From Thermodesulfovibrionia bacterium (GTDB lineage Bacteria > Nitrospirota > Thermodesulfovibrionia > UBA6902), in assembly GCA_963699585.1 (NCBI GenBank), contig CAVOUK010000002.1, forward strand, positions 72,811 through 136,810: DNA of 64,000 bases. Reading direction: 5' to 3'. Made by a program: the position numbers and the translations under genes. The notes below the pieces were generated by a model. That model was not told the DNA's origin, did no database searches, and saw only the letters and a program-made list of their open reading frames with translations. Shown in pieces: positions 30,515 through 63,502 of this stretch (position 1 is its first letter; each line of letters begins with the position of its first letter).

Positions 30515-30650
30515 GCTCGTGAAAGCGCGGAAGTGCCACAGAGCAAAAGTCAGCGGGAAGCGATGAAGTAAATTGTAGGGAGTATCGCGACATGCCCTTT
30601 TAGGCTTTCCGCACTTCCTAACTTCCTTGCTTCCTCGCTTACTTACTTGT
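30510..30650. repeat. Phased-octamer tract pair: AAG-sense arm (30510-30575) and CTT-sense arm (30605-30648) around a degenerate GTAGGG..CCCT palindrome
   Basis: Right arm GGCTTTCC GCACTTCC TAACTTCC TTGCTTCC TCGCTTAC TTACTTG, with CTT at 30622, 30630, 30638 and 30646. Confidence 0.7.
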
Positions 30651-45891: not shown

Positions 45892-48800
45892 ATGAGCAGT
45901 AACATACGATCGTTATTGTATGCAGTGTTTTTAGTTCCTGTTTTCCTGATTGGTGGTGTCTTTGCAGATAGAGCAGAGGCAGTGACTCCTCAGATAGCAG
46001 CAGGATACTTTCACTCCCTTGCCTTAAAGTCAGACGGAACGTTATGGGCGTGGGGATTTAATGGCTACGGCCAATTGGGAGACGGCACAACAACTAATAG
46101 TAATTCCCAAAAACAGATCGGCTCTGACAATAATTGGGTTTCAGTTGCAGCAGGATACTTTCACAACCTTGCCTTAAAATCAGACGGAACATTATGGGCG
46201 TGGGGAAGTAATTTATCCGGCCAATTGGGAGACGGCACAACAACGATCAGTAATTCCCCGAAACAAATCGGCTCTGACAATAATTGGGTTTCAATTGCAG
46301 GAGGATACTATCACACCCTTGCCTTAAAATCAGACGGAACATTATGGGCGTGGGGATATAATGGCTACGGCCAATTGGGAGACGGCACAACAAGTAACAG
46401 TAATTCACCAAAACAGATCGGCTCTGATAACAATTGGGTTTCAATTAAAGCAGGATACTTACACACCATTGCCTTAAAATCAAACGGAACGTTATGGGCG
46501 TGGGGATATAATGGCTACGGCCAATTGGGAGACGGCACAACAACTAACAGTAATTCCCCAAAACAGATCGGCTCTGACAACAAGTGGGTTTCATTTGCAT
46601 GCAGGAGAGGGGCACACCCTTGCCTTAAAATCAGACGGAACGTTATGGGCATGGGGAAATAACGCTAATGGGCAATTGGGAGACGGCACAATAACTAACA
46701 GTAAATCCCCAAAACAGATCGGCTCTGACAACAAGTGGGTTTCAATTGCAGCAGGATACTATTACACCCTTGCCTTAAAATCAGACAGAACGTTATGGGC
46801 GTGGGGATATAATGGTTACGGCCAATTGGGAGACGGGACAATAACCAACAGTAATTCCCCAAAACAGATCGGCTCTGACAGGAATTGGGTTGCAATTGCA
46901 GCAGGAGACTATCACTCCCTTGCCTTAAAATCAGACGAAACGTTATGGGCATGGGGATATAACGATAACGGCCAATTGGGTGTCTGTACAACGAACAATA
47001 AAACTTCACCTGTTCAGATACAGTGCGATCTATTGGCCGATCTCATCATACAGAGCATTACCACAGATCCAGTAAATCCAGGAGTCGGACAGACTGTAAC
47101 TGTAACAGTGACAGTGAAAAATCAGGGCACTCTTGCATCAGGGCAGTTTAATGTAGATTTTTATAAGGACCTGCCTACAGGTGTAACTCCAAATCCTCCT
47201 GGTGACAGTGAAGACTTCTGGTGCACATTTGCCAGTCTGCCTGCAGGGACAACAGATTCCTCCTGCACCAAAAGTGTAACTTATGCTGATGCAGACACGT
47301 ATAACATGTGGGCTTTTGCGGATGCTGCAAAAAATGTTTCTGAATTCATTGAGATCAATAACGTCTATGGTCCTCAGGCTATCACTGTATGTGATCTTAA
47401 TTCTTATTACTACGATGCAGACGCTGACGGTTATGGTGATCCTGACAGTCCAAAACAGGCATGTTATCAGCCTTTGGGCTATGTAACAAATTCTGTGGAT
47501 TGTGATGACACTGATCCGACCATCAACCCCTACGCTGTTGAGATGTGCGACAATAAGGACAACGACTGTGACGGTCAGACTGATGAAGATATTGCCTCAA
47601 TACCGACCACCTGCGGAGTTGGTGAATGTACAAGAACAGGGAACAATATCTGTACAAACGGATCATGGATCAATTCTTGTACCCCCGGAGAACCGGTAGA
47701 AGAAGTCTGTGACAACAAAGACAACAATTGCGACGGAACAATTGACAATGGGCTTACCCGTCCAACTGCCTGCGGAGCAGGAGTTTGTTCAGCAACAGGC
47801 ACGGAAACATGCTCTGCCGGCACATGGGGCAATGATACATGCATTGTAAAACTGCCTGTTGACGAAATATGTAACAACATAGATGATGATTGCGATGGCA
47901 TAATTGACAATGGCCTTACCCGTCCAACTGCCTGCGGAGCAGGAGTTTGTTCAGCAACAGGCACGGAGACATGCTCTGCCGGCACATGGGGCAATGATAC
48001 ATGCACAGCAAAACTGCCTGTTGACGAAATATGTAACAACATAGACGATGATTGCGATGGCATAATTGACAATGGGCTTACCCGTCCAACTGCCTGCGAA
48101 GCAGGCGCCTGTTCAGCAACAGGCACGGAGACATGCTCTGCCGGTTTATGGGGCAATGATACATGCATTGTAAAACTGCCTGTTGACGAAATATGTAACA
48201 ACATTGACGATGATTGCGATGGCATAATTGACAATGGCCTTACCCGTCCAACTGCCTGCGGAGCAGGTTCCTGTTCAGCAACAGGCACGGAGACATGCTC
48301 TGCCGGTTTATGGGGCAATGATACATGCACAGTAAAACTGCCTGTTGACGATACATGCAACAATATAGATGATGATTGCGATGGTCAGGTCGATGAGGAC
48401 TATATCCCGATACCTATCAGTTGCGGACAAGGTGTATGTGCCGCAGACGGGCTGTTGATCTGTCAGGACGGACAAGAAAGCAGCACATGTATTAACAAAC
48501 TGCCAACAGAAAATATTGAAACTACATGTAATGATAATGCAGACAACGATTGTGACGGTTTTACAGACGGAAACGACCCAAACTGTTCCATTACATCCGA
48601 CTTAGCGGTCAGTTCCGTAAGCAAACCTCCCGTAAAAAAGAGACGAGGGAAGAGTTTTAACGTTAAAGCCGGGATAAACAATAAAGGAATTGGAGCAGCG
48701 GATAAAGAATTTACAATAGGGTATTATCTTTCAAAGAATAAGGATACGCTTATAAACAAAGATGCTGATATTTTACTGACTGATGATATTATTGTGTCAT

Positions 48801-48970
48801 TGTTGCCTGCAGGAGCAGGTTCAAAAGGAAAAACAAAGGTCAATATCCCTATGGATACGCCTAAAGGCAAGTACTATGTAAAGGTCTGTGCAGACAACAG
48901 GAATGATATAGCAGAAACAAATGAAGATAATAATTGCAGAACATCAGCTAACAAAATAAAAGTTAAATAA
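45892..48970 (+). CDS. Large secreted protein: 7-blade RCC1-like propeller + CARDB + ~7 MopE-type Cys/Asp repeats + CARDB; one frame break (extra T at 46600)
   Basis: AGGAGG RBS and signal peptide [30 protein letters not shown]; repeated [26 protein letters not shown]; [14 protein letters not shown]-type motifs; CARDB-like [20 protein letters not shown] and [11 protein letters not shown]..; ORFs 45805..46662 and 46511..48970 join; span 3079 nt (3n+1). Confidence 0.85.
45997..47030 (+). repeat. Seven tandem 150-bp coding repeats (RCC1 blades) with high nucleotide identity
   Basis: Units start at 45997, 46147, 46297, 46447, 46597, 46748 and 46898; long identical runs such as CCTTGCCTTAAAATCAGACGGAAC.TTATGGGCGTGGGGA. 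Confidence 0.85.
47708..48355 (+). repeat. Four tandem 162-bp coding repeats (54-aa MopE-type modules), near-identical
   Basis: Units start at 47708, 47870, 48032 and 48194; only scattered substitutions between copies. Confidence 0.9.
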
Positions 48971-49890: not shown

Positions 49891-49946
49891 CAAGCTTGCC
49901 AGCTTGCCAGCTTGCACGCTTTCCAGCTTTCAAGTTTGCACGCTCC
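49891..49946 (+). repeat. Phased-octamer tract, 7 units
   Basis: CAAGCTTG CCAGCTTG CCAGCTTG CACGCTTT CCAGCTTT CAAGTTTG CACGCTCC. Confidence 0.85.
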
Positions 49947-54647: not shown

Positions 54648-54706
54648 GCGATCTTCCCCGCTTCCGGGCGCTTGCCAGCTTGCACGCTTCCCCGCTTCCG
54701 AGCTAC
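54648..54706 (+). repeat. Phased-octamer tract immediately upstream of the spmA/B-like gene
   Basis: CTT at 54653, 54661, 54671, 54679, 54687 and 54695 (8-nt steps with one 10-nt step). Confidence 0.8.
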
Positions 54707-55961: not shown

Positions 55962-56036
55962 TAACTTCCGATCTTCCCTGCTTCAGATCTTACGATCTTA
56001 TGCACTTCCGCGCTTCCAGGCTTGCGAGCTTCTTCG
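55962..56036 (+). repeat. Phased-octamer tract, 9-10 units, directly after the spmA/B-like stop
   Basis: AACTTCCG ATCTTCCC TGCTTCAG ATCTTACG ATCTTATG CACTTCCG CGCTTCCA GGCTTGCG AGCTTCTT; CTT at 55965 + 8n for n = 0..8. Confidence 0.9.
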
Positions 56037-57192: not shown

Positions 57193-57238
57193 CCACTTCC
57201 ACGCCGGCAAGCTTGCAGGCTTTCAAGCTTGCCAGCGC
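57193..57238 (+). repeat. Phased-octamer tract between the glycine-zipper gene and GH43
   Basis: CTT at 57196, 57212, 57220 and 57228; overlaps the putative GH43 start. Confidence 0.7.
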
Positions 57239-58217: not shown

Positions 58218-58290
58218 AAGCTCATTAGCTCGTAAGTTTCGCTCTTCCCACTGGAAGCTTTCCAGCTTACATGCTTGCAGGCTTCTTCGA
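58218..58290 (+). repeat. Phased-octamer tract directly after the GH43 stop
   Basis: ..AGCTTTCC AGCTTACA TGCTTGCA GGCTTCTT..; CTT at 58258, 58266, 58274 and 58282; the upstream part is less regular. Confidence 0.75.
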
Positions 58291-58754: not shown

Positions 58755-58803
58755 TAAGCTGGCAAGCGTGCAAGCTGGATAGCTTTCAGGCCTGCCGGCT
58801 TTA
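58755..58803. repeat. Phased-octamer tract, AAG-sense units then CTT-sense units
   Basis: AAGCTGGC AAGCGTGC AAGCTGGA TAGCTTTC AGGCCTGC CGGCTTTA. Confidence 0.75.
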
Positions 58804-58977: not shown

Positions 58978-59841
58978 ATGCTCTCATTAAAAATAACCTT
59001 GATTTTCTATTTCCTTGTAATTATCCTCATAGCCGATCTGAACGCCATTGTTGATCTGGTCCTGCACCCTGATATCTCATACTTTGATAAAGAGCATTTG
59101 ATCATAGGAGGCATTACAGCCGGATTCATTGCCCTCATTTTTGGGTTATTGCTATTGTATACGAAACGGCTGCAAAATCTTATCACATTGCAGAAGCGCA
59201 CAGAAGAAAAGCTCCGGCTTTTGTCTCTTACGGATGAACTTACAGGCATACACAACAGGCGCGGATTTATCACCCTGGCTGAACAGGAGTTAAAGAGGGC
59301 CAACAGGCTGAAAAAAAATAAGATGTTGATCCTTGCAGCAGACATGGATGGTCTCAAGAGGATCAATGATACGTTTGGTCATCATGAGGGCGACCTGGCG
59401 CTGATCATGTTTTCCTGTATCCTCAAGAAAACTTTTCGCGATTCAGATATTATCGCACGTATCGGGGGGGATGAGTTCATGGTGTTTCAGGTAGAAAATG
59501 ACATTAACAATTCAAATACAATTACTGCGCGCCTGCAGAAAAATCTCGATATCCAGAATGCCAGGAACAGCAGCTACAAGTTATCTTTAAGCATCGGTAC
59601 AGTGTACTATGATCCGCAAGTCCATCATTCTCTTGATGAGCTGATGACCCACGTGGATAAAATGATGTACGAGCAAAAAAGGCAACATAAAAGCCTGATC
59701 AGGGTAGTTGCAGACACGTCACCAGCGACTCATTATCTTTCACCTCTTGTTCCGGACATGGCAACACCTACAACAATAACTACCAAAGAAGGCGAATTTA
59801 CAGATCATATTCACGACTGCCGAATGGGATTAAGCAAATGA
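58978..59841 (+). CDS. Membrane-anchored diguanylate cyclase (GGDEF) with I-site
   Basis: GGGAGG RBS before ATG 58978 (MLSLKITLIFYFLVIILIA..); ..DELTGIHNRRGF.., RDSD I-site five residues before RIGGDEFMVF. Confidence 0.85.
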   Translation: MLSLKITLIFYFLVIILIADLNAIVDLVLHPDISYFDKEHLIIGGITAGFIALIFGLLLLYTKRLQNLITLQKRTEEKLRLLSLTDELTGIHNRRGFITLAEQELKRANRLKKNKMLILAADMDGLKRINDTFGHHEGDLALIMFSCILKKTFRDSDIIARIGGDEFMVFQVENDINNSNTITARLQKNLDIQNARNSSYKLSLSIGTVYYDPQVHHSLDELMTHVDKMMYEQKRQHKSLIRVVADTSPATHYLSPLVPDMATPTTITTKEGEFTDHIHDCRMGLSK

Positions 59842-59869: not shown

Positions 59870-59950
59870 AGCTTCAATGTACTTTCTTCCGCGCTTACGA
59901 GCTTCCCCGCTTCCAAGCTTTCCAGCTTGCCGGCTTTCGGGCTTTCCCGA
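59870..59950 (+). repeat. Phased-octamer tract, ~10 units, directly after the GGDEF stop
   Basis: ..TCTTCCGC GCTTACGA GCTTCCCC GCTTCCAA GCTTTCCA GCTTGCCG GCTTTCGG GCTTTCCC; CTT at 59886 + 8n for n = 0..7. Confidence 0.9.
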
Positions 59951-60122
59951 TTTATTTACGAATGGATGCTTGAAAAAAAAATATATGATAAACTTACGGA
60001 AGGGGTAATCAACGTCCAATAGATATCCAGGCATTAACGGTCCGGGAGTTGAATACAAAGAACATTGTAAGATCTCCGGGATGAAGACCTACTATTAATA
60101 ACAAAAAAGTAAAGGAGCATAT

Positions 60123-61082
60123 ATGAATTCGTTTAGTTCTAATGCGCGGCGTGGGAGATCACGGCCACAGCAGCGTTCAAATGTGCCGGCGCGCAGGGTT
60201 GCTTCATCTGATGAGATAAAGTTTCTTGCCGGTACGGCAGTAAACCCGCATACACGTATTATTCTTGAGAAGGGCAGTAATGATCTGTCCGTCCGAGCGC
60301 TTGATCTTATTTGTCCGATAGGTATGGGTCAGCGCGCTCTTATAGTAGCATCGCCCGGGTTGGGTAAAACGACATTTTTGAAAAATATCAGTAATGCGGT
60401 AACAAACGGGTATCCTGACATGAAGGTATATTGCCTGCTTGTTGATGAGCGTCCTGAAGAGGTGACCGATTTTACACGTAGTGTGACGGCCAGGGTATAT
60501 TCATCGTCTATGGACCATAGTCATGAAAGTCATATTAAGGTCGTAGATAAGGTTATCGCAGAGGCTTTTAAGGAAGCTGCCGCAGGGCATAATGTGATGA
60601 TATTGCTTGATTCACTTACGCGTCTGGCGCGGGTACATAACGCACAGCACATAGGTAGAGGGCGTACGATGTCGGGAGGAGTGGGCGCCGGTGCACTTGA
60701 AGTACCACGCCGTATCTTTGGTATTGCCCGCAATGTAGAGGGCCTGGGCTCTATAACGATCCTTGCGACGATCCTGGTCGATACAGGCAGTGCTATGGAT
60801 AATGTTATATTTGAGGAGTTTAAAGGTACGGGCAATATGGAACTGGTGCTCTCAAAAGAACTGGCGGAAAAGAGGGTGTTCCCGGCAATAAATGTGTTAA
60901 AAAGCGGTACCCGGCGTGCTGAGCTTTTGTTTGAGCCGGAAGAGTACAGACGCCTTGAATTATTGCGCCGGGGCATGGCATCGATGCATAATAGTGTTGC
61001 CGCTATGGAAAAGCTTATAGAGCTGCTTCAGAAATATCCGACCAATAGCGAGCTTTTAGAATCATTTAAGGGAAGAACGTAG
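60123..61082 (+). CDS. Rho-like RecA-type ATPase lacking the N-terminal RNA-binding domain (319 aa)
   Basis: Aligns with E. coli Rho from about residue 130 onward: LDLICPIGMGQRALIVASPGLGKT (Walker A), LLVDERPEEVT, ILLDSLTRLARV, Q-loop-like GRGRTMSGGVG, EEFKGTGNMELVLS, KRVFPAINVLKSGTRRAELL. The N-terminus is a 30-aa Arg-rich stretch. AAAGGAG RBS; upstream DNA has stops in all frames. Confidence 0.85.
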   Translation: MNSFSSNARRGRSRPQQRSNVPARRVASSDEIKFLAGTAVNPHTRIILEKGSNDLSVRALDLICPIGMGQRALIVASPGLGKTTFLKNISNAVTNGYPDMKVYCLLVDERPEEVTDFTRSVTARVYSSSMDHSHESHIKVVDKVIAEAFKEAAAGHNVMILLDSLTRLARVHNAQHIGRGRTMSGGVGAGALEVPRRIFGIARNVEGLGSITILATILVDTGSAMDNVIFEEFKGTGNMELVLSKELAEKRVFPAINVLKSGTRRAELLFEPEEYRRLELLRRGMASMHNSVAAMEKLIELLQKYPTNSELLESFKGRT

Positions 61083-63404: not shown

Positions 63405-63502
63405 TGGCGGGAGCGTGTGGGAATCGAACCCACACTGCCCACTTGTGGCAGGCAACACCGGATTTGAAGTCCGGGAGGGACACCAGAACCCTATACGCTC
63501 CC
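63405..63502 (-). tRNA. selC: tRNA-Sec (anticodon UCA)
   Basis: 98 nt: GGGAGCGUAUAGGGUUCUGGUGUCCCUCCCGGACUUCAAAUCCGGUGUUGCCUGCCACAAGUGGGCAGUGUGGGUUCGAUUCCCACACGCUCCCGCCA. 8-bp acceptor stem GGGAGCGU/ACGCUCCC, anticodon loop CUUCAAA, long variable arm, T-loop UUCGAUU, encoded CCA. GGACUUCAAAUCC is identical to E. coli selC. Confidence 0.9.

Follow-up and report, generated by a model that had tools for sequence, protein, structure and literature searches.

Models of how the termination factor Rho loads onto RNA rest on its N-terminal domain (NTD), where OB-fold primary sites capture YC-rich rut RNA and promote ring closure. The same domain contacts RNA polymerase, NusA, and NusG in pre-termination complexes. 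Is a disordered cationic tail by itself enough for a Rho ring to load and function? The window analyzed here (a stretch of 64,000 nucleotides from a Thermodesulfovibrionia bacterium) holds a natural experiment on this question, and on the role that a second Rho plays. At 60123–61082, on the + strand like all features described below, it encodes a protein of 319 aa, short Rho. The open reading frame list, Pfam, PRK09376, an AF2 model, and Foldseek define it as an Arg-rich tail followed by a connector and a RecA-type ATPase domain.

The open reading frame is real and complete. The Shine–Dalgarno sequence AAGGAG (60112–60117) lies 5 nt 5′ of the ATG and is identical in 24 of 24 aligned family loci. 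Upstream of the gene, all three frames are closed by stops between 59842 and 60122, among them an in-frame TAATAA at 60096–60101 (reported as 24 nt 5′ of the gene). The first-pass annotation had described the stops in every frame and the good ribosome-binding site correctly. A tblastn search with the E. coli Rho NTD found no NTD-coding DNA in the whole window (best E value 0.44) and none within ±10 kb of short rho in about 36 loci. As a positive control, the identical query picked up the NTD in every canonical rho locus. These searches exclude an NTD-coding segment 5′ of the gene or at another place in the window, and likewise a split gene close to short rho.

The short form is not a local truncation, since a form of about 320 aa is found in more than 120 protein clusters and in about 36 species-level MAGs. 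The clusters share a length of 314–323 aa at 72–94% identity. The loci belong to GTDB species that are mostly Thermodesulfovibrionia, and the start codon has an identical position in them. Start codon, ribosome-binding site, tail, and length are common to these roughly 36 genomes and the fold is that of the Rho C-terminal domain (CTD), which bears out the earlier view that no frameshift artefact is involved. Metatranscriptome contigs from sediments cover the short rho of relatives from about 60111 to 61071 in window coordinates. The form is not confined to this locus but belongs to a widespread family, whose members already carry the name “Rho” in pipeline annotations. An exact look-up of the window protein itself in public assemblies gave no record. 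One relative (L026) has a decayed fragment of a second copy.

The only Pfam domain of short Rho is PF00006. Neither Rho_N (PF07498) nor Rho_RNA_bind (PF07497, the OB fold) was detected even at E≤1, the outcome that had been forecast for a domain scan. The protein aligns to residues ~131–417 of E. coli Rho and 147–426 of Thermus Rho, starting at the connector, so the initial description of a C-terminal half of Rho from the linker onward is accurate. The NCBIfam Rho profile is matched at positions 128–412 of 413. The PRK09376 Rho score of 359.5 bits is above the cutoff of 315, and the score against the TIGR00767 rho equivalog (341.5 bits) falls under its curated cutoff of 509.45. The connector (60210–60293) is the counterpart of E. 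coli Rho residues ~129–156, as E. coli Rho alignments begin at 129–131. In the AF2 model (pTM 0.83), residues 29–36 of this region form a helix. The top 50 Foldseek matches of the model were all Rho, the best being the E. coli Rho CTD (TMq 0.85, rmsd 1.6 Å over 286 columns). As modeled, the Rho CTD fold is present in short Rho, including the connector and the C-terminal helices.

In place of the NTD of ~130 residues, which is wholly absent as originally noted (Pfam, tblastn), the protein begins with 29 Arg-rich residues, MNSFSSNARRGRSRPQQRSNVPARRVASS (60123–60209), predicted to be disordered from pLDDT. Seven of the first 31 residues are Arg, and pLDDT is below 50 over residues 1–24. The family consensus of the tail is MSSFxSNxRRGxSRPQQRSxxPARRV. 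With a dN/dS of ~0.46, compared with ~0.19 for the core, the tail is under weaker constraint and still under purifying selection; judged by these ratios, short rho as a whole is under purifying selection. The tail is enlarged by repeats in L036 and P0040. Arg-rich tails also occur in the unrelated short forms P0121, P0122, P0166, P0229, and P0156, all of which are without Rho_RNA_bind. Two routes by which such a protein might find RNA had been put forward and have gained support. One is the tail itself, which is conserved, selected, and recurrent in independent short-Rho lineages. The other is a canonical Rho in the same genome, which probably co-exists according to a metagenome depth match.

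The catalytic machinery is intact. Walker A (ASPGLGKT, 60348–60371) retains K184 and T185 in the family alignment. The segment VDERPEEV (60441–60464) holds the catalytic Glu (E. coli E211) and the Arg valve (R212). Walker B (ILLDS, 60600–60614; E. coli D265 and S266) is followed by R269 and is invariant. SGTRR (60903–60917) contains the arginine finger, E. coli R366, an invariant Arg. The set comprising GKT, D265, E211, R212, and R366, like the VDERPEEV segment, does not vary across the 121 family sequences. Walker A, the DERPEEV segment, Walker B, and the Q-loop had been listed as retained, and the alignment agrees. The segment KSGTRRAELL had been read as the R-loop; it aligns instead to E. 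coli 362-SGTRK-367 and carries the arginine finger. We found no upstream NTD, no full-length orthologues that would make this a truncated sole rho, and no degenerate motifs, the three findings that the first-pass annotation had held to be fatal to its reading.

The loops of the secondary RNA site have fared differently. The Q-loop, HIGRGRTMSGGVGAG (60648–60692), is aligned with E. coli K283 replaced by Arg and T286 by Ser; R283, S286, and the GG are invariant in the family. Its pLDDT is low, as expected for a flexible loop. The family Q-loop gains an Arg at E. coli position 279, where the window protein has Ile. The true R-loop is DTGSAMD (60780–60800, E. coli 322–328), in which Lys326 has become Ala (DTGSA as against E. 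coli 322-DTGSK-326). Among the 121 family members, position 326 is Ala in 77, Asn in 20, and Arg in 18, and the basic residue is gone in ~84% (A/N/C/V). The P-loop position of Lys181 is Gly in 120 of the 121. In canonical Rho representatives (n=136), position 326 is basic in 134 and position 181 in all 136. The nearest short forms, P0122 and L065, retain Arg at 326. Because R-loop Lys326 and P-loop Lys181 are replaced, the secondary-site loops are only partly retained: the claim that they were kept is half right, since the R-loop Lys is lost and its motif had been misassigned. Read from the alignment, the absence of K181 and K326, which are universal elsewhere, suggests a changed coupling of RNA binding to ATP hydrolysis. 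Alternatively, the protein could be a poor RNA translocase or could act on a substrate other than RNA.

How does this protein compare with known Rho types? Relative to canonical Rho (E. coli “Type 1”, Rho_N plus Rho_RNA_bind plus ATPase), homology extends through the whole of the connector and ATPase domain, with 48% identity and a TM of 0.85. Walker A and B, the catalytic Glu, the Arg valve, the Arg finger, and the Q-loop core are common to both, and so are the bicyclomycin-pocket residues E211, R212, D265, S266, R269, L320, T323, and G337. The differences are the ~130-residue NTD (helix bundle and OB-fold primary RNA site) against a disordered Arg-rich tail of 30 aa, K181 and K326 against Gly and Ala/Asn, and a TIGR00767 score under the cutoff (341 vs. 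509). Second Rho copies without N-terminal parts are already known (PMC11347177). Those termed “Type 4” or “group B” by Moreira et al. 2024 (PMC11347177), citing D'Heygere et al. 2013, resemble short Rho in being shortened, often additional to a full Rho, and conserved in their catalytic residues. Type 4 keeps the RNA-binding OB fold (we confirmed PF07497 in P0170 and P0242), whereas the short-Rho family is without it. Moreira et al. define a “functional Rho” by the RNA-binding domain and call the others “Rho-like”, a category that only their supplement describes. By its domain content, short Rho is “Rho-like” and not a “functional Rho” under this definition, because it has no RNA-binding OB-fold domain: PF07497 and PF07498 (Types 1–3) are both absent, and Type 4 does not fit.

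Another curated short paralogue is NF041509 ([quoted passage not shown]). Short Rho aligns only to profile positions 78–358 of 360, so that the ~77 N-terminal positions have no counterpart, and its score of 293.7 bits is below the cutoff of 628, which the other short Rho forms tested also failed to reach. In other bacteria, basic disordered regions make Rho bind RNA more tightly (PMC11347177). The Rho proteins of M. tuberculosis, Bacteroides, and Micrococcus (PMC11347177, PMC13650167) have, like short Rho, an Arg/Gly-rich segment on the N-terminal side, which is expected to bind RNA nonspecifically. There the disordered region comes on top of a complete NTD, whereas in short Rho it replaces the whole NTD. 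FliI/type III secretion ATPases and the F1 ATPase beta subunit share the RecA-type PF00006 domain and are hexameric ring ATPases, but they are far more distant (about 95 bits vs. 360 for Rho). Short Rho has the Rho-specific Q-loop and C-terminal helices and lacks a secretion-system context. Searches for literature on ATPase-only Rho paralogues, and on the complete short-rho genome CP070632, found none. Short Rho is an uncharacterised variant within the known Rho family. The class is hidden in practice, because pipelines call it plain “transcription termination factor Rho” and the main Rho survey places single-domain proteins under “Rho-like”.

Phylogeny separates short Rho from the canonical Rho of related organisms, to which its CTD is ~48% identical. 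It clusters with ATPase-only Rho of Omnitrophota and Sericytochromatia. Neighbor-joining bootstrap values were 99% for the short-Rho family, 87% for the family plus Sericytochromatia, and 74% for the ATPase-only clade, and short Rho grouped with the canonical Rho of its lineage in 0 of 100 replicates. The nearest non-short neighbors in the tree are the OB-only proteins P0170 and P0207. The short clade extends over several phyla at 57–62% identity; among its members are some labeled as other than Nitrospirota and some whose GC content departs widely (L036, 66% GC). Synteny across the family loci revealed no conserved gene neighborhood; the surroundings vary strongly. A SAICAR-synthetase-like/NYN/ADSL/NusB block lies 3′ of short rho in only five loci, and a conserved partner gene was rejected. 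A defence-system or phage origin was also rejected: PADLOC and PHROGs gave generic P-loop matches alone, and a viral-contig scan was empty. The context showed no tie to defence systems, phages, or secretion systems.

Does a canonical Rho exist in the same genome? We recovered rho contigs with five reference sequences from X61, the simple source metagenome of the short-rho locus L010, and sorted them by depth. They comprised a canonical contig at 240.6×, a canonical-type contig at 114.4×, the short-rho contig L010 at 106.8×, a canonical contig at 47.7×, and minor others. The 114.4× contig has about 45% GC, similar to L010, and the signature ATALIDTGSR...LHLDRKLVDKRI, which marks full three-domain Rho genes. 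L112, a locus of this canonical-signature type, has an aminotransferase-HPPK-GATase block in common with L010; beside the block L112 has canonical rho and L010 a different gene. With short rho as bait, no second rho at matching depth appeared in the S1 and X61 metagenomes, and no contig with both short and canonical rho was found. The sediment metagenomes with CP070632.1 were too complex for differential-coverage matching, with the target at only 4–6×. Because the 114× and 107× contigs match in depth, the short form is probably a paralogue beside a normal Rho, on one depth match in one metagenome. The same depth pattern would arise from a pair of related populations that happen to be about equally abundant.

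About half of our confidence goes to short Rho being a functional member of an old, distinct “ATPase-only” Rho lineage, a second and differently targeted RNA motor beside canonical Rho. Members of this lineage have a connector and RecA-type ring-motor domain behind a disordered cationic tail of ~30 residues, in place of the helix-bundle/OB-fold NTD. Short Rho would form a homohexameric, ATP-driven 5′→3′ RNA translocase. RNA would be caught by six flexible Arg-rich tails, electrostatically and largely independently of sequence, without a YC-specific primary site, and the Arg-enriched Q-loop may add to this capture. One cell could then hold two Rho-type motors with different substrate selection, candidate roles for short Rho being termination, in reserve or for special purposes, and the remodelling of R-loops or RNPs. 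It is unlikely, though deserving of serious weight, that the short protein is the sole Rho and performs general factor-dependent termination, its tail replacing the primary site. The gene does have a housekeeping-like profile (single-copy, monocistronic, own promoter and leader, strong Shine–Dalgarno sequence, strong purifying selection, intact catalytic residues). The missing NTD around the ~36 loci, the different gene of L010 at the place of canonical rho in L112, and the empty bait searches point the same way. Against this stand the canonical-type contig in X61, which matches in depth, is close in GC, and bears the related canonical lineage's signature, and the highly variable neighborhoods. 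A spread over several phyla at 57–62% identity with odd labels and GC (L036) is more in keeping with a paralogue that is accessory or was transferred than with a gene the cell cannot do without.

If canonical Rho is indeed in the same genome, short and canonical subunits might form hetero-hexamers with fewer primary sites or added cationic tails, thereby tuning termination. Moreira et al. proposed such hetero-hexamers for second copies of Rho (PMC11347177, section “Species with two rho genes”), and Rho ring contacts lie mainly in the CTD, which short Rho retains and which superposes at 1.6 Å. Yet the two genes are neither linked nor co-regulated. Short Rho has also long formed a clade of its own, with a CTD that shares only ~48% identity with the lineage's canonical Rho, which leaves ample time for the ring interfaces to have drifted apart; we think a mixed ring improbable. 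We judge it quite improbable, too, that the protein has given up Rho-like RNA translocation and instead acts as a motor on ssDNA or R-loops, serves another complex as its ATPase, or has become a regulatory NTPase. The entire primary site is missing, and so are Lys326 and Lys181, two positions that are basic in nearly every canonical Rho. However, the Q-loop residues (R283, S286, GG), arginine finger, Arg valve, and catalytic Glu are invariant, the Q-loop has gained Arg, P0122 and L065 keep Arg at 326, and the context offers no link to defence, phage, or secretion functions. An assembly truncation or decaying rho remnant has next to no chance of being correct. Frameshift artefacts are said to occur elsewhere in the window, and L026 has its decayed copy, but the same architecture and start recur in more than 120 protein clusters and in ~36 assemblies made independently, with a dN/dS of ~0.19, an invariant ribosome-binding site, transcribed relatives, and a confident fold model.

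The second-motor reading can be extended, tentatively and as less likely than not, to ATPase-only, Arg-tailed Rho as an ancient and separate class of ring-shaped RNA motors (Nitrospirota, Omnitrophota, Sericytochromatia, and others) loading by a disordered cationic crown without an OB-fold site. If true, there would be a second, sequence-independent Rho-type pathway of termination or RNA surveillance, or the sole one in some lineages, and the primary binding site would be dispensable for the loading of Rho-type rings.

Upstream of the gene, a phased GCTT octamer tract (59886–59952; TRF, terminator scan) ends in a terminator-like hairpin (59937–59950 plus a T-run). The tract had been noted before, and it is real (59886–59947 for the octamers proper), but it falls outside the conserved upstream block and is not conserved in relatives. 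The implied tie of short Rho to C/U-rich octamer tracts did not hold up: the tracts belong to this organism only, and a link is ruled out by their absence from other family loci (one match in a search over all other loci). The tract is an organism-specific repeat without relation to short rho and not part of the rho unit. The conserved block itself (59960–60122, ~165 nt), a promoter and 5′ leader, is found in ~16 loci with unrelated upstream genes; like the start codon and Shine–Dalgarno sequence, it is kept despite unrelated neighbors. A structured RNA leader or riboswitch was rejected, with a fold z of 0.43 (not significant), weak covariation, and no Rfam match for the leader. The block contains an extended −10-like element, TGATAAACT, at 59986–59994, and a CUCC that can pair with GGGAG or with the Shine–Dalgarno sequence.

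The ORF at 60123–61082 on the forward strand encodes a 319-residue product; we refer to it and its ATPase-only relatives of about 320 aa as short Rho. Its Pfam match is the ATP-synt_ab nucleotide-binding domain alone (residues 57–261). Rho_N and Rho_RNA_bind gave no match in Pfam, even at E≤1, and the domain scan agrees with what the first-pass annotation had anticipated. The NCBIfam model PRK09376 is matched with 359.5 bits (cutoff 315) over positions 128–412 of its 413 positions. The scores for TIGR00767 (341 vs a cutoff of 509) and for NF041509, the “Rho2 short form” paralogue model (294 vs 628), are below cutoff. The closest solved structures are those of Thermus Rho (residues 147–426) and E. 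coli Rho (residues 131–417). The AlphaFold2 model (pTM 0.83) is confident from about residue 25 on, and residues 1–24 are disordered. All of the top 50 Foldseek matches to this model are Rho C-terminal domains (CTD, the ATPase/translocase half; TMq 0.85, rmsd 1.6 Å, 286 columns), and they include RNA-bound closed Rho rings. We verified an E. coli query for the N-terminal domain (NTD, helix bundle and OB fold) residue by residue against PDB 1pv4; tblastn with this query gave noise alone across the 64-kb window (best E 0.44). The main reading of the first-pass annotation, a Rho homologue that lacks the NTD, was right, apart from its description of the RNA-contact loops and a link to octamer repeats.

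The truncation is not an artefact, as the first reading had also held, and it is not local. The ribosome-binding site AAGGAG (60112–60117, +) lies 5 nt ahead of the ATG, an in-frame TAATAA is found at 60096–60101 (+), and stops interrupt all three forward frames from the upstream GGDEF gene, which ends at 59841, up to the ATG. Scanning the species genomes of GTDB gave around 36 loci at 73–93% identity, all from uncultured organisms, including the complete chromosome CP070632.1 and one 2.69-Mb contig. The short form, start codon and AAGGAG are invariant across these loci, and the E. coli NTD query found no NTD within ±10 kb of short rho in any of them. At canonical rho loci from the same scan, this query did detect an NTD, immediately ahead of the ATPase domain. 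A protein search returned more than 120 clusters at 72–94% identity, nearly all of 314–323 aa, which originate from Nitrospirota/Thermodesulfovibrionia MAGs under the source name “transcription termination factor Rho”. By a crude pooled Nei–Gojobori estimate, dN/dS is approximately 0.19 in the ATPase core, against 0.46 in the tail. In genuine metatranscriptomes of sediment, contigs cover relatives over roughly 60111–61071. Short Rho is an intact Rho CTD protein, selected and expressed; its tail is disordered and cationic, and it lacks a primary RNA-binding domain. In one relative (JADHUV010000001.1, 12066–12389), the intact gene is followed at a distance of 1.1 kb by a decayed fragment of a second short-rho copy. 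The same MAG, BS150m-G55, has a further intact short rho on another contig (87% vs 82% identity to the window); these extra copies reflect either duplication or a mixed bin.

Nucleotide conservation extends upstream over a promoter/leader block of about 165 nt (59960–60122, +; equivalents in loci L005–L030), which is conserved in around 16 loci or genomes despite unrelated upstream genes. Within it are TGATAAACT, which resembles an extended −10 element, and a leader of about 125 nt. A CUCC in the block could pair either with GGGAG farther upstream or with the Shine–Dalgarno sequence, and from the sequence this alternative pairing may be a translational switch. The predicted fold of the leader is not significant (z 0.43), covariation is weak, and Rfam gave no match.

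We compared the catalytic and RNA-contact residues by aligning short Rho with E. coli Rho (Ec numbering) and 120 relatives. The Walker A residues K184 and T185, the catalytic E211, R212, the Walker B D265, R269 and the arginine finger R366 are invariant. The segment KSGTRRAELL, initially labeled as R-loop-like, holds R366 instead; the true R-loop of the window protein is DTGSA, compared with 322-DTGSK-326 in E. coli. Across the family, residue 326 is A/N/R/C/V/K in 77/20/18/3/1/1 sequences, and Gly occupies position 181 of the P-loop in 120 of 121. Representatives of canonical or extended Rho have a basic residue at position 326 in 134/136 cases and at position 181 in 136/136. The Q-loop core is retained (R283, S286 and GG). 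Position 279 is Arg in 111 of 121 short Rho proteins, a gain, versus Pro in 88 of 136 canonical ones; it is Ile in the window protein. The proposal that the secondary-site loops are kept therefore holds for the Q-loop core and fails for the R-loop, where K326 is replaced. Intact catalytic residues, the loss of K181 and K326 and the Q-loop changes suggest an intact motor chemistry combined with an altered network of RNA contacts and coupling.

The Arg-rich tail is conserved in sequence, beyond mere composition, in the family alignment (M-S-S-F-x-S-N-x-RRG-x-SRPQQRS-x-x-P-ARRV-x-S-x-DE) and has a net charge of about +5 to +7. It can grow by tandem repeat of its own unit, with QPGRRQRPN present about three times in locus L036 and SRRxxSxPQQRSN twice in the protein P0040. 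The very different GC content (66%) of L036 (CAYMFW010000287.1) and its labelling as Planctomycetota hint that short rho was transferred horizontally. Short Rho proteins that fall into clusters of their own at 50% identity all have Arg-rich or RGG-like tails joined straight to the connector: P0121 (Sericytochromatia, 301 aa), P0122, P0166 (on 4.4–4.9-Mb chromosomes), P0229, P0156 and L065 (Omnitrophota). Rho_RNA_bind is absent from every one of these scanned against Pfam, and the “Type 4” relatives P0170 and P0242 retain it.

In an exhaustive search of representatives, the nearest to short Rho are also short forms (62% and 57% identity), beyond which canonical or extended Rho proteins of many lengths plateau at 48–55%. 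Neighbor-joining (NJ) trees built on the ATPase domain recover the Nitrospirota family as monophyletic (bootstrap 99%). It groups with the Sericytochromatia protein (87%) and then with the Omnitrophota protein and P0122 (74%), forming an old clade exclusively of ATPase-only proteins. OB-only proteins are among its nearest other neighbors. The closest relative outside Nitrospirota, at 62% identity, is the ATPase-only P0121 (MEZ0371657.1, Candidatus Sericytochromatia bacterium). Sericytochromatia are the non-photosynthetic sister group of Cyanobacteria, to our knowledge a phylum reported without any Rho.

Moreira et al. 2024 (PMC11347177) divide Rho into Types 1–4 and describe an RNA-binding domain even in Type 4; single-Rho-domain proteins are called “Rho-like”, outside “functional Rho”, and treated in the supplement only. 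Unlike Type 4, short Rho has no RNA-binding domain, and it does not reach the cutoff of the NCBI Rho2 short-form model. We therefore regard it as a variant, as yet uncharacterised, within a known family rather than as a system of a new kind. ATPase-only Rho proteins go unmentioned in a 2025 review. The existence of short Rho is already implicit in databases; the coherence of the clade, the conserved tail and leader and the specific residue losses appear undescribed.

The key biological question, whether short Rho is the sole Rho or a paralogue, can be answered in part. Logan contigs aligned to rho at 80% identity also recruit other rho genes via the conserved FEEFKGTGNME. We examined X61, the small subsurface metagenome that is the source of L010, a locus whose protein is 91% identical to the window protein. 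The 30.1-kb contig of L010 has a depth of 106.8x. A 6.3-kb contig at 114.4x carries a canonical-type rho (ATALIDTGSR ... LHLDRKLVDKRI) at about 45% GC, as in L010. Other canonical genes lie on a high-GC 3.2-kb contig (240.6x) and a 16.6-kb contig (47.7x), with minor rho genes on several contigs at ≤36x. A degenerate DNA pattern for GNMELHLDRKLVDKRI matched 120 metagenome contigs, and each ORF uncut by a contig end encodes a full three-domain Rho. This canonical lineage (L066–L185; N-terminus MxNISISELKEKTIDEL...; contigs of 38–52% GC) is widespread. One member, L112 (rho at 537–1811, −), has an aminotransferase–HPPK–GATase block in common with L010, in the same order and at 73/59/57% identity; the lineage therefore belongs to relatives of short-rho organisms. 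Beside this block, at the position of the L112 rho, L010 has a response-regulator/HDOD gene. We found no contig with both rho types. The CTD of the canonical lineage is about 48% identical to short Rho, and the two never group in NJ trees. There is moderate evidence that short-rho genomes also carry a canonical rho, which we consider fairly likely; a role of the short protein as the only Rho is possible but less likely.

In E. coli Rho, the ring contacts, the ATPase sites and the central secondary RNA site are all in the CTD. The simplest expectation for short Rho would thus be a homohexameric, ATP-driven RNA translocase; a non-RNA function is possible but less likely. The replacement of K326 and K181 suggests that coupling is altered. 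Without OB folds, there would be no selection of YC-rich rut sites and no NTD contacts with RNA polymerase, NusA or NusG. Six Arg-rich tails would be the obvious substitute for initial RNA capture, and PMC11347177 and PMC13650167 describe basic disordered insertions acting likewise in other Rho factors. Since a canonical Rho is probably present, short Rho would best be regarded as another motor beside it, with a different specificity; mixed rings of the two are possible but less likely. Short Rho offers a cheap and direct way to ask whether Rho can do without its primary binding site.

Apart from the leader block, there is no conserved gene neighborhood across the family loci. The window neighbors are a GGDEF cyclase, a small 4Fe-4S ferredoxin, a D-Ala-D-Ala carboxypeptidase, a flavin reductase and tRNA-Sec, and none is linked to transcription. 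In a subset of loci (L005, 11149–15496, and similarly L008, L012, L016 and L019; L001/L022, 13320–15158), SAICAR-synthetase-like, NYN-domain RNase, adenylosuccinate lyase and NusB genes lie downstream; CP070632.1 has RNase H and NYN_YacP genes there. These RNA-related neighbors are not shared by the family as a whole.

The window contains phased GCTT octamer tracts with a consensus of about GCTTNCNN, which are strongly non-random (14 pattern matches vs 0 expected, 100 shuffles). Six intergenic sites with GCTT every 8 nt lie between 49.9 and 59.9 kb (49893–49944, 54653–54705, 55965–56032, 58257–58284, 58756–58783 on the minus strand, and 59885–59952); weaker tracts are at 30614–30640 and 57207–57236. 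The suggested tie to short Rho did not hold up: the tracts are essentially absent from the roughly 36 other family loci (a single match), and the one upstream of short rho lies outside the conserved block, with a terminator-like hairpin at its end. In a close relative, such tracts are spread over several distinct contigs that share one depth. The tracts are a dispersed repeat family of this organism and no companion of short rho. Large in-frame tandem repeats are also present at 45997–46980 and 47708–48384 (a 150-nt unit × 6.6 and a 162-nt unit × 4.2) in the region of a long ORF (46511–48970, +), which probably encodes a repeat-domain surface or secreted protein. The tRNA-Sec gene (63405–63502, −; anticodon TCA; Rfam RF01852, 75 bits) indicates that the organism uses selenocysteine.
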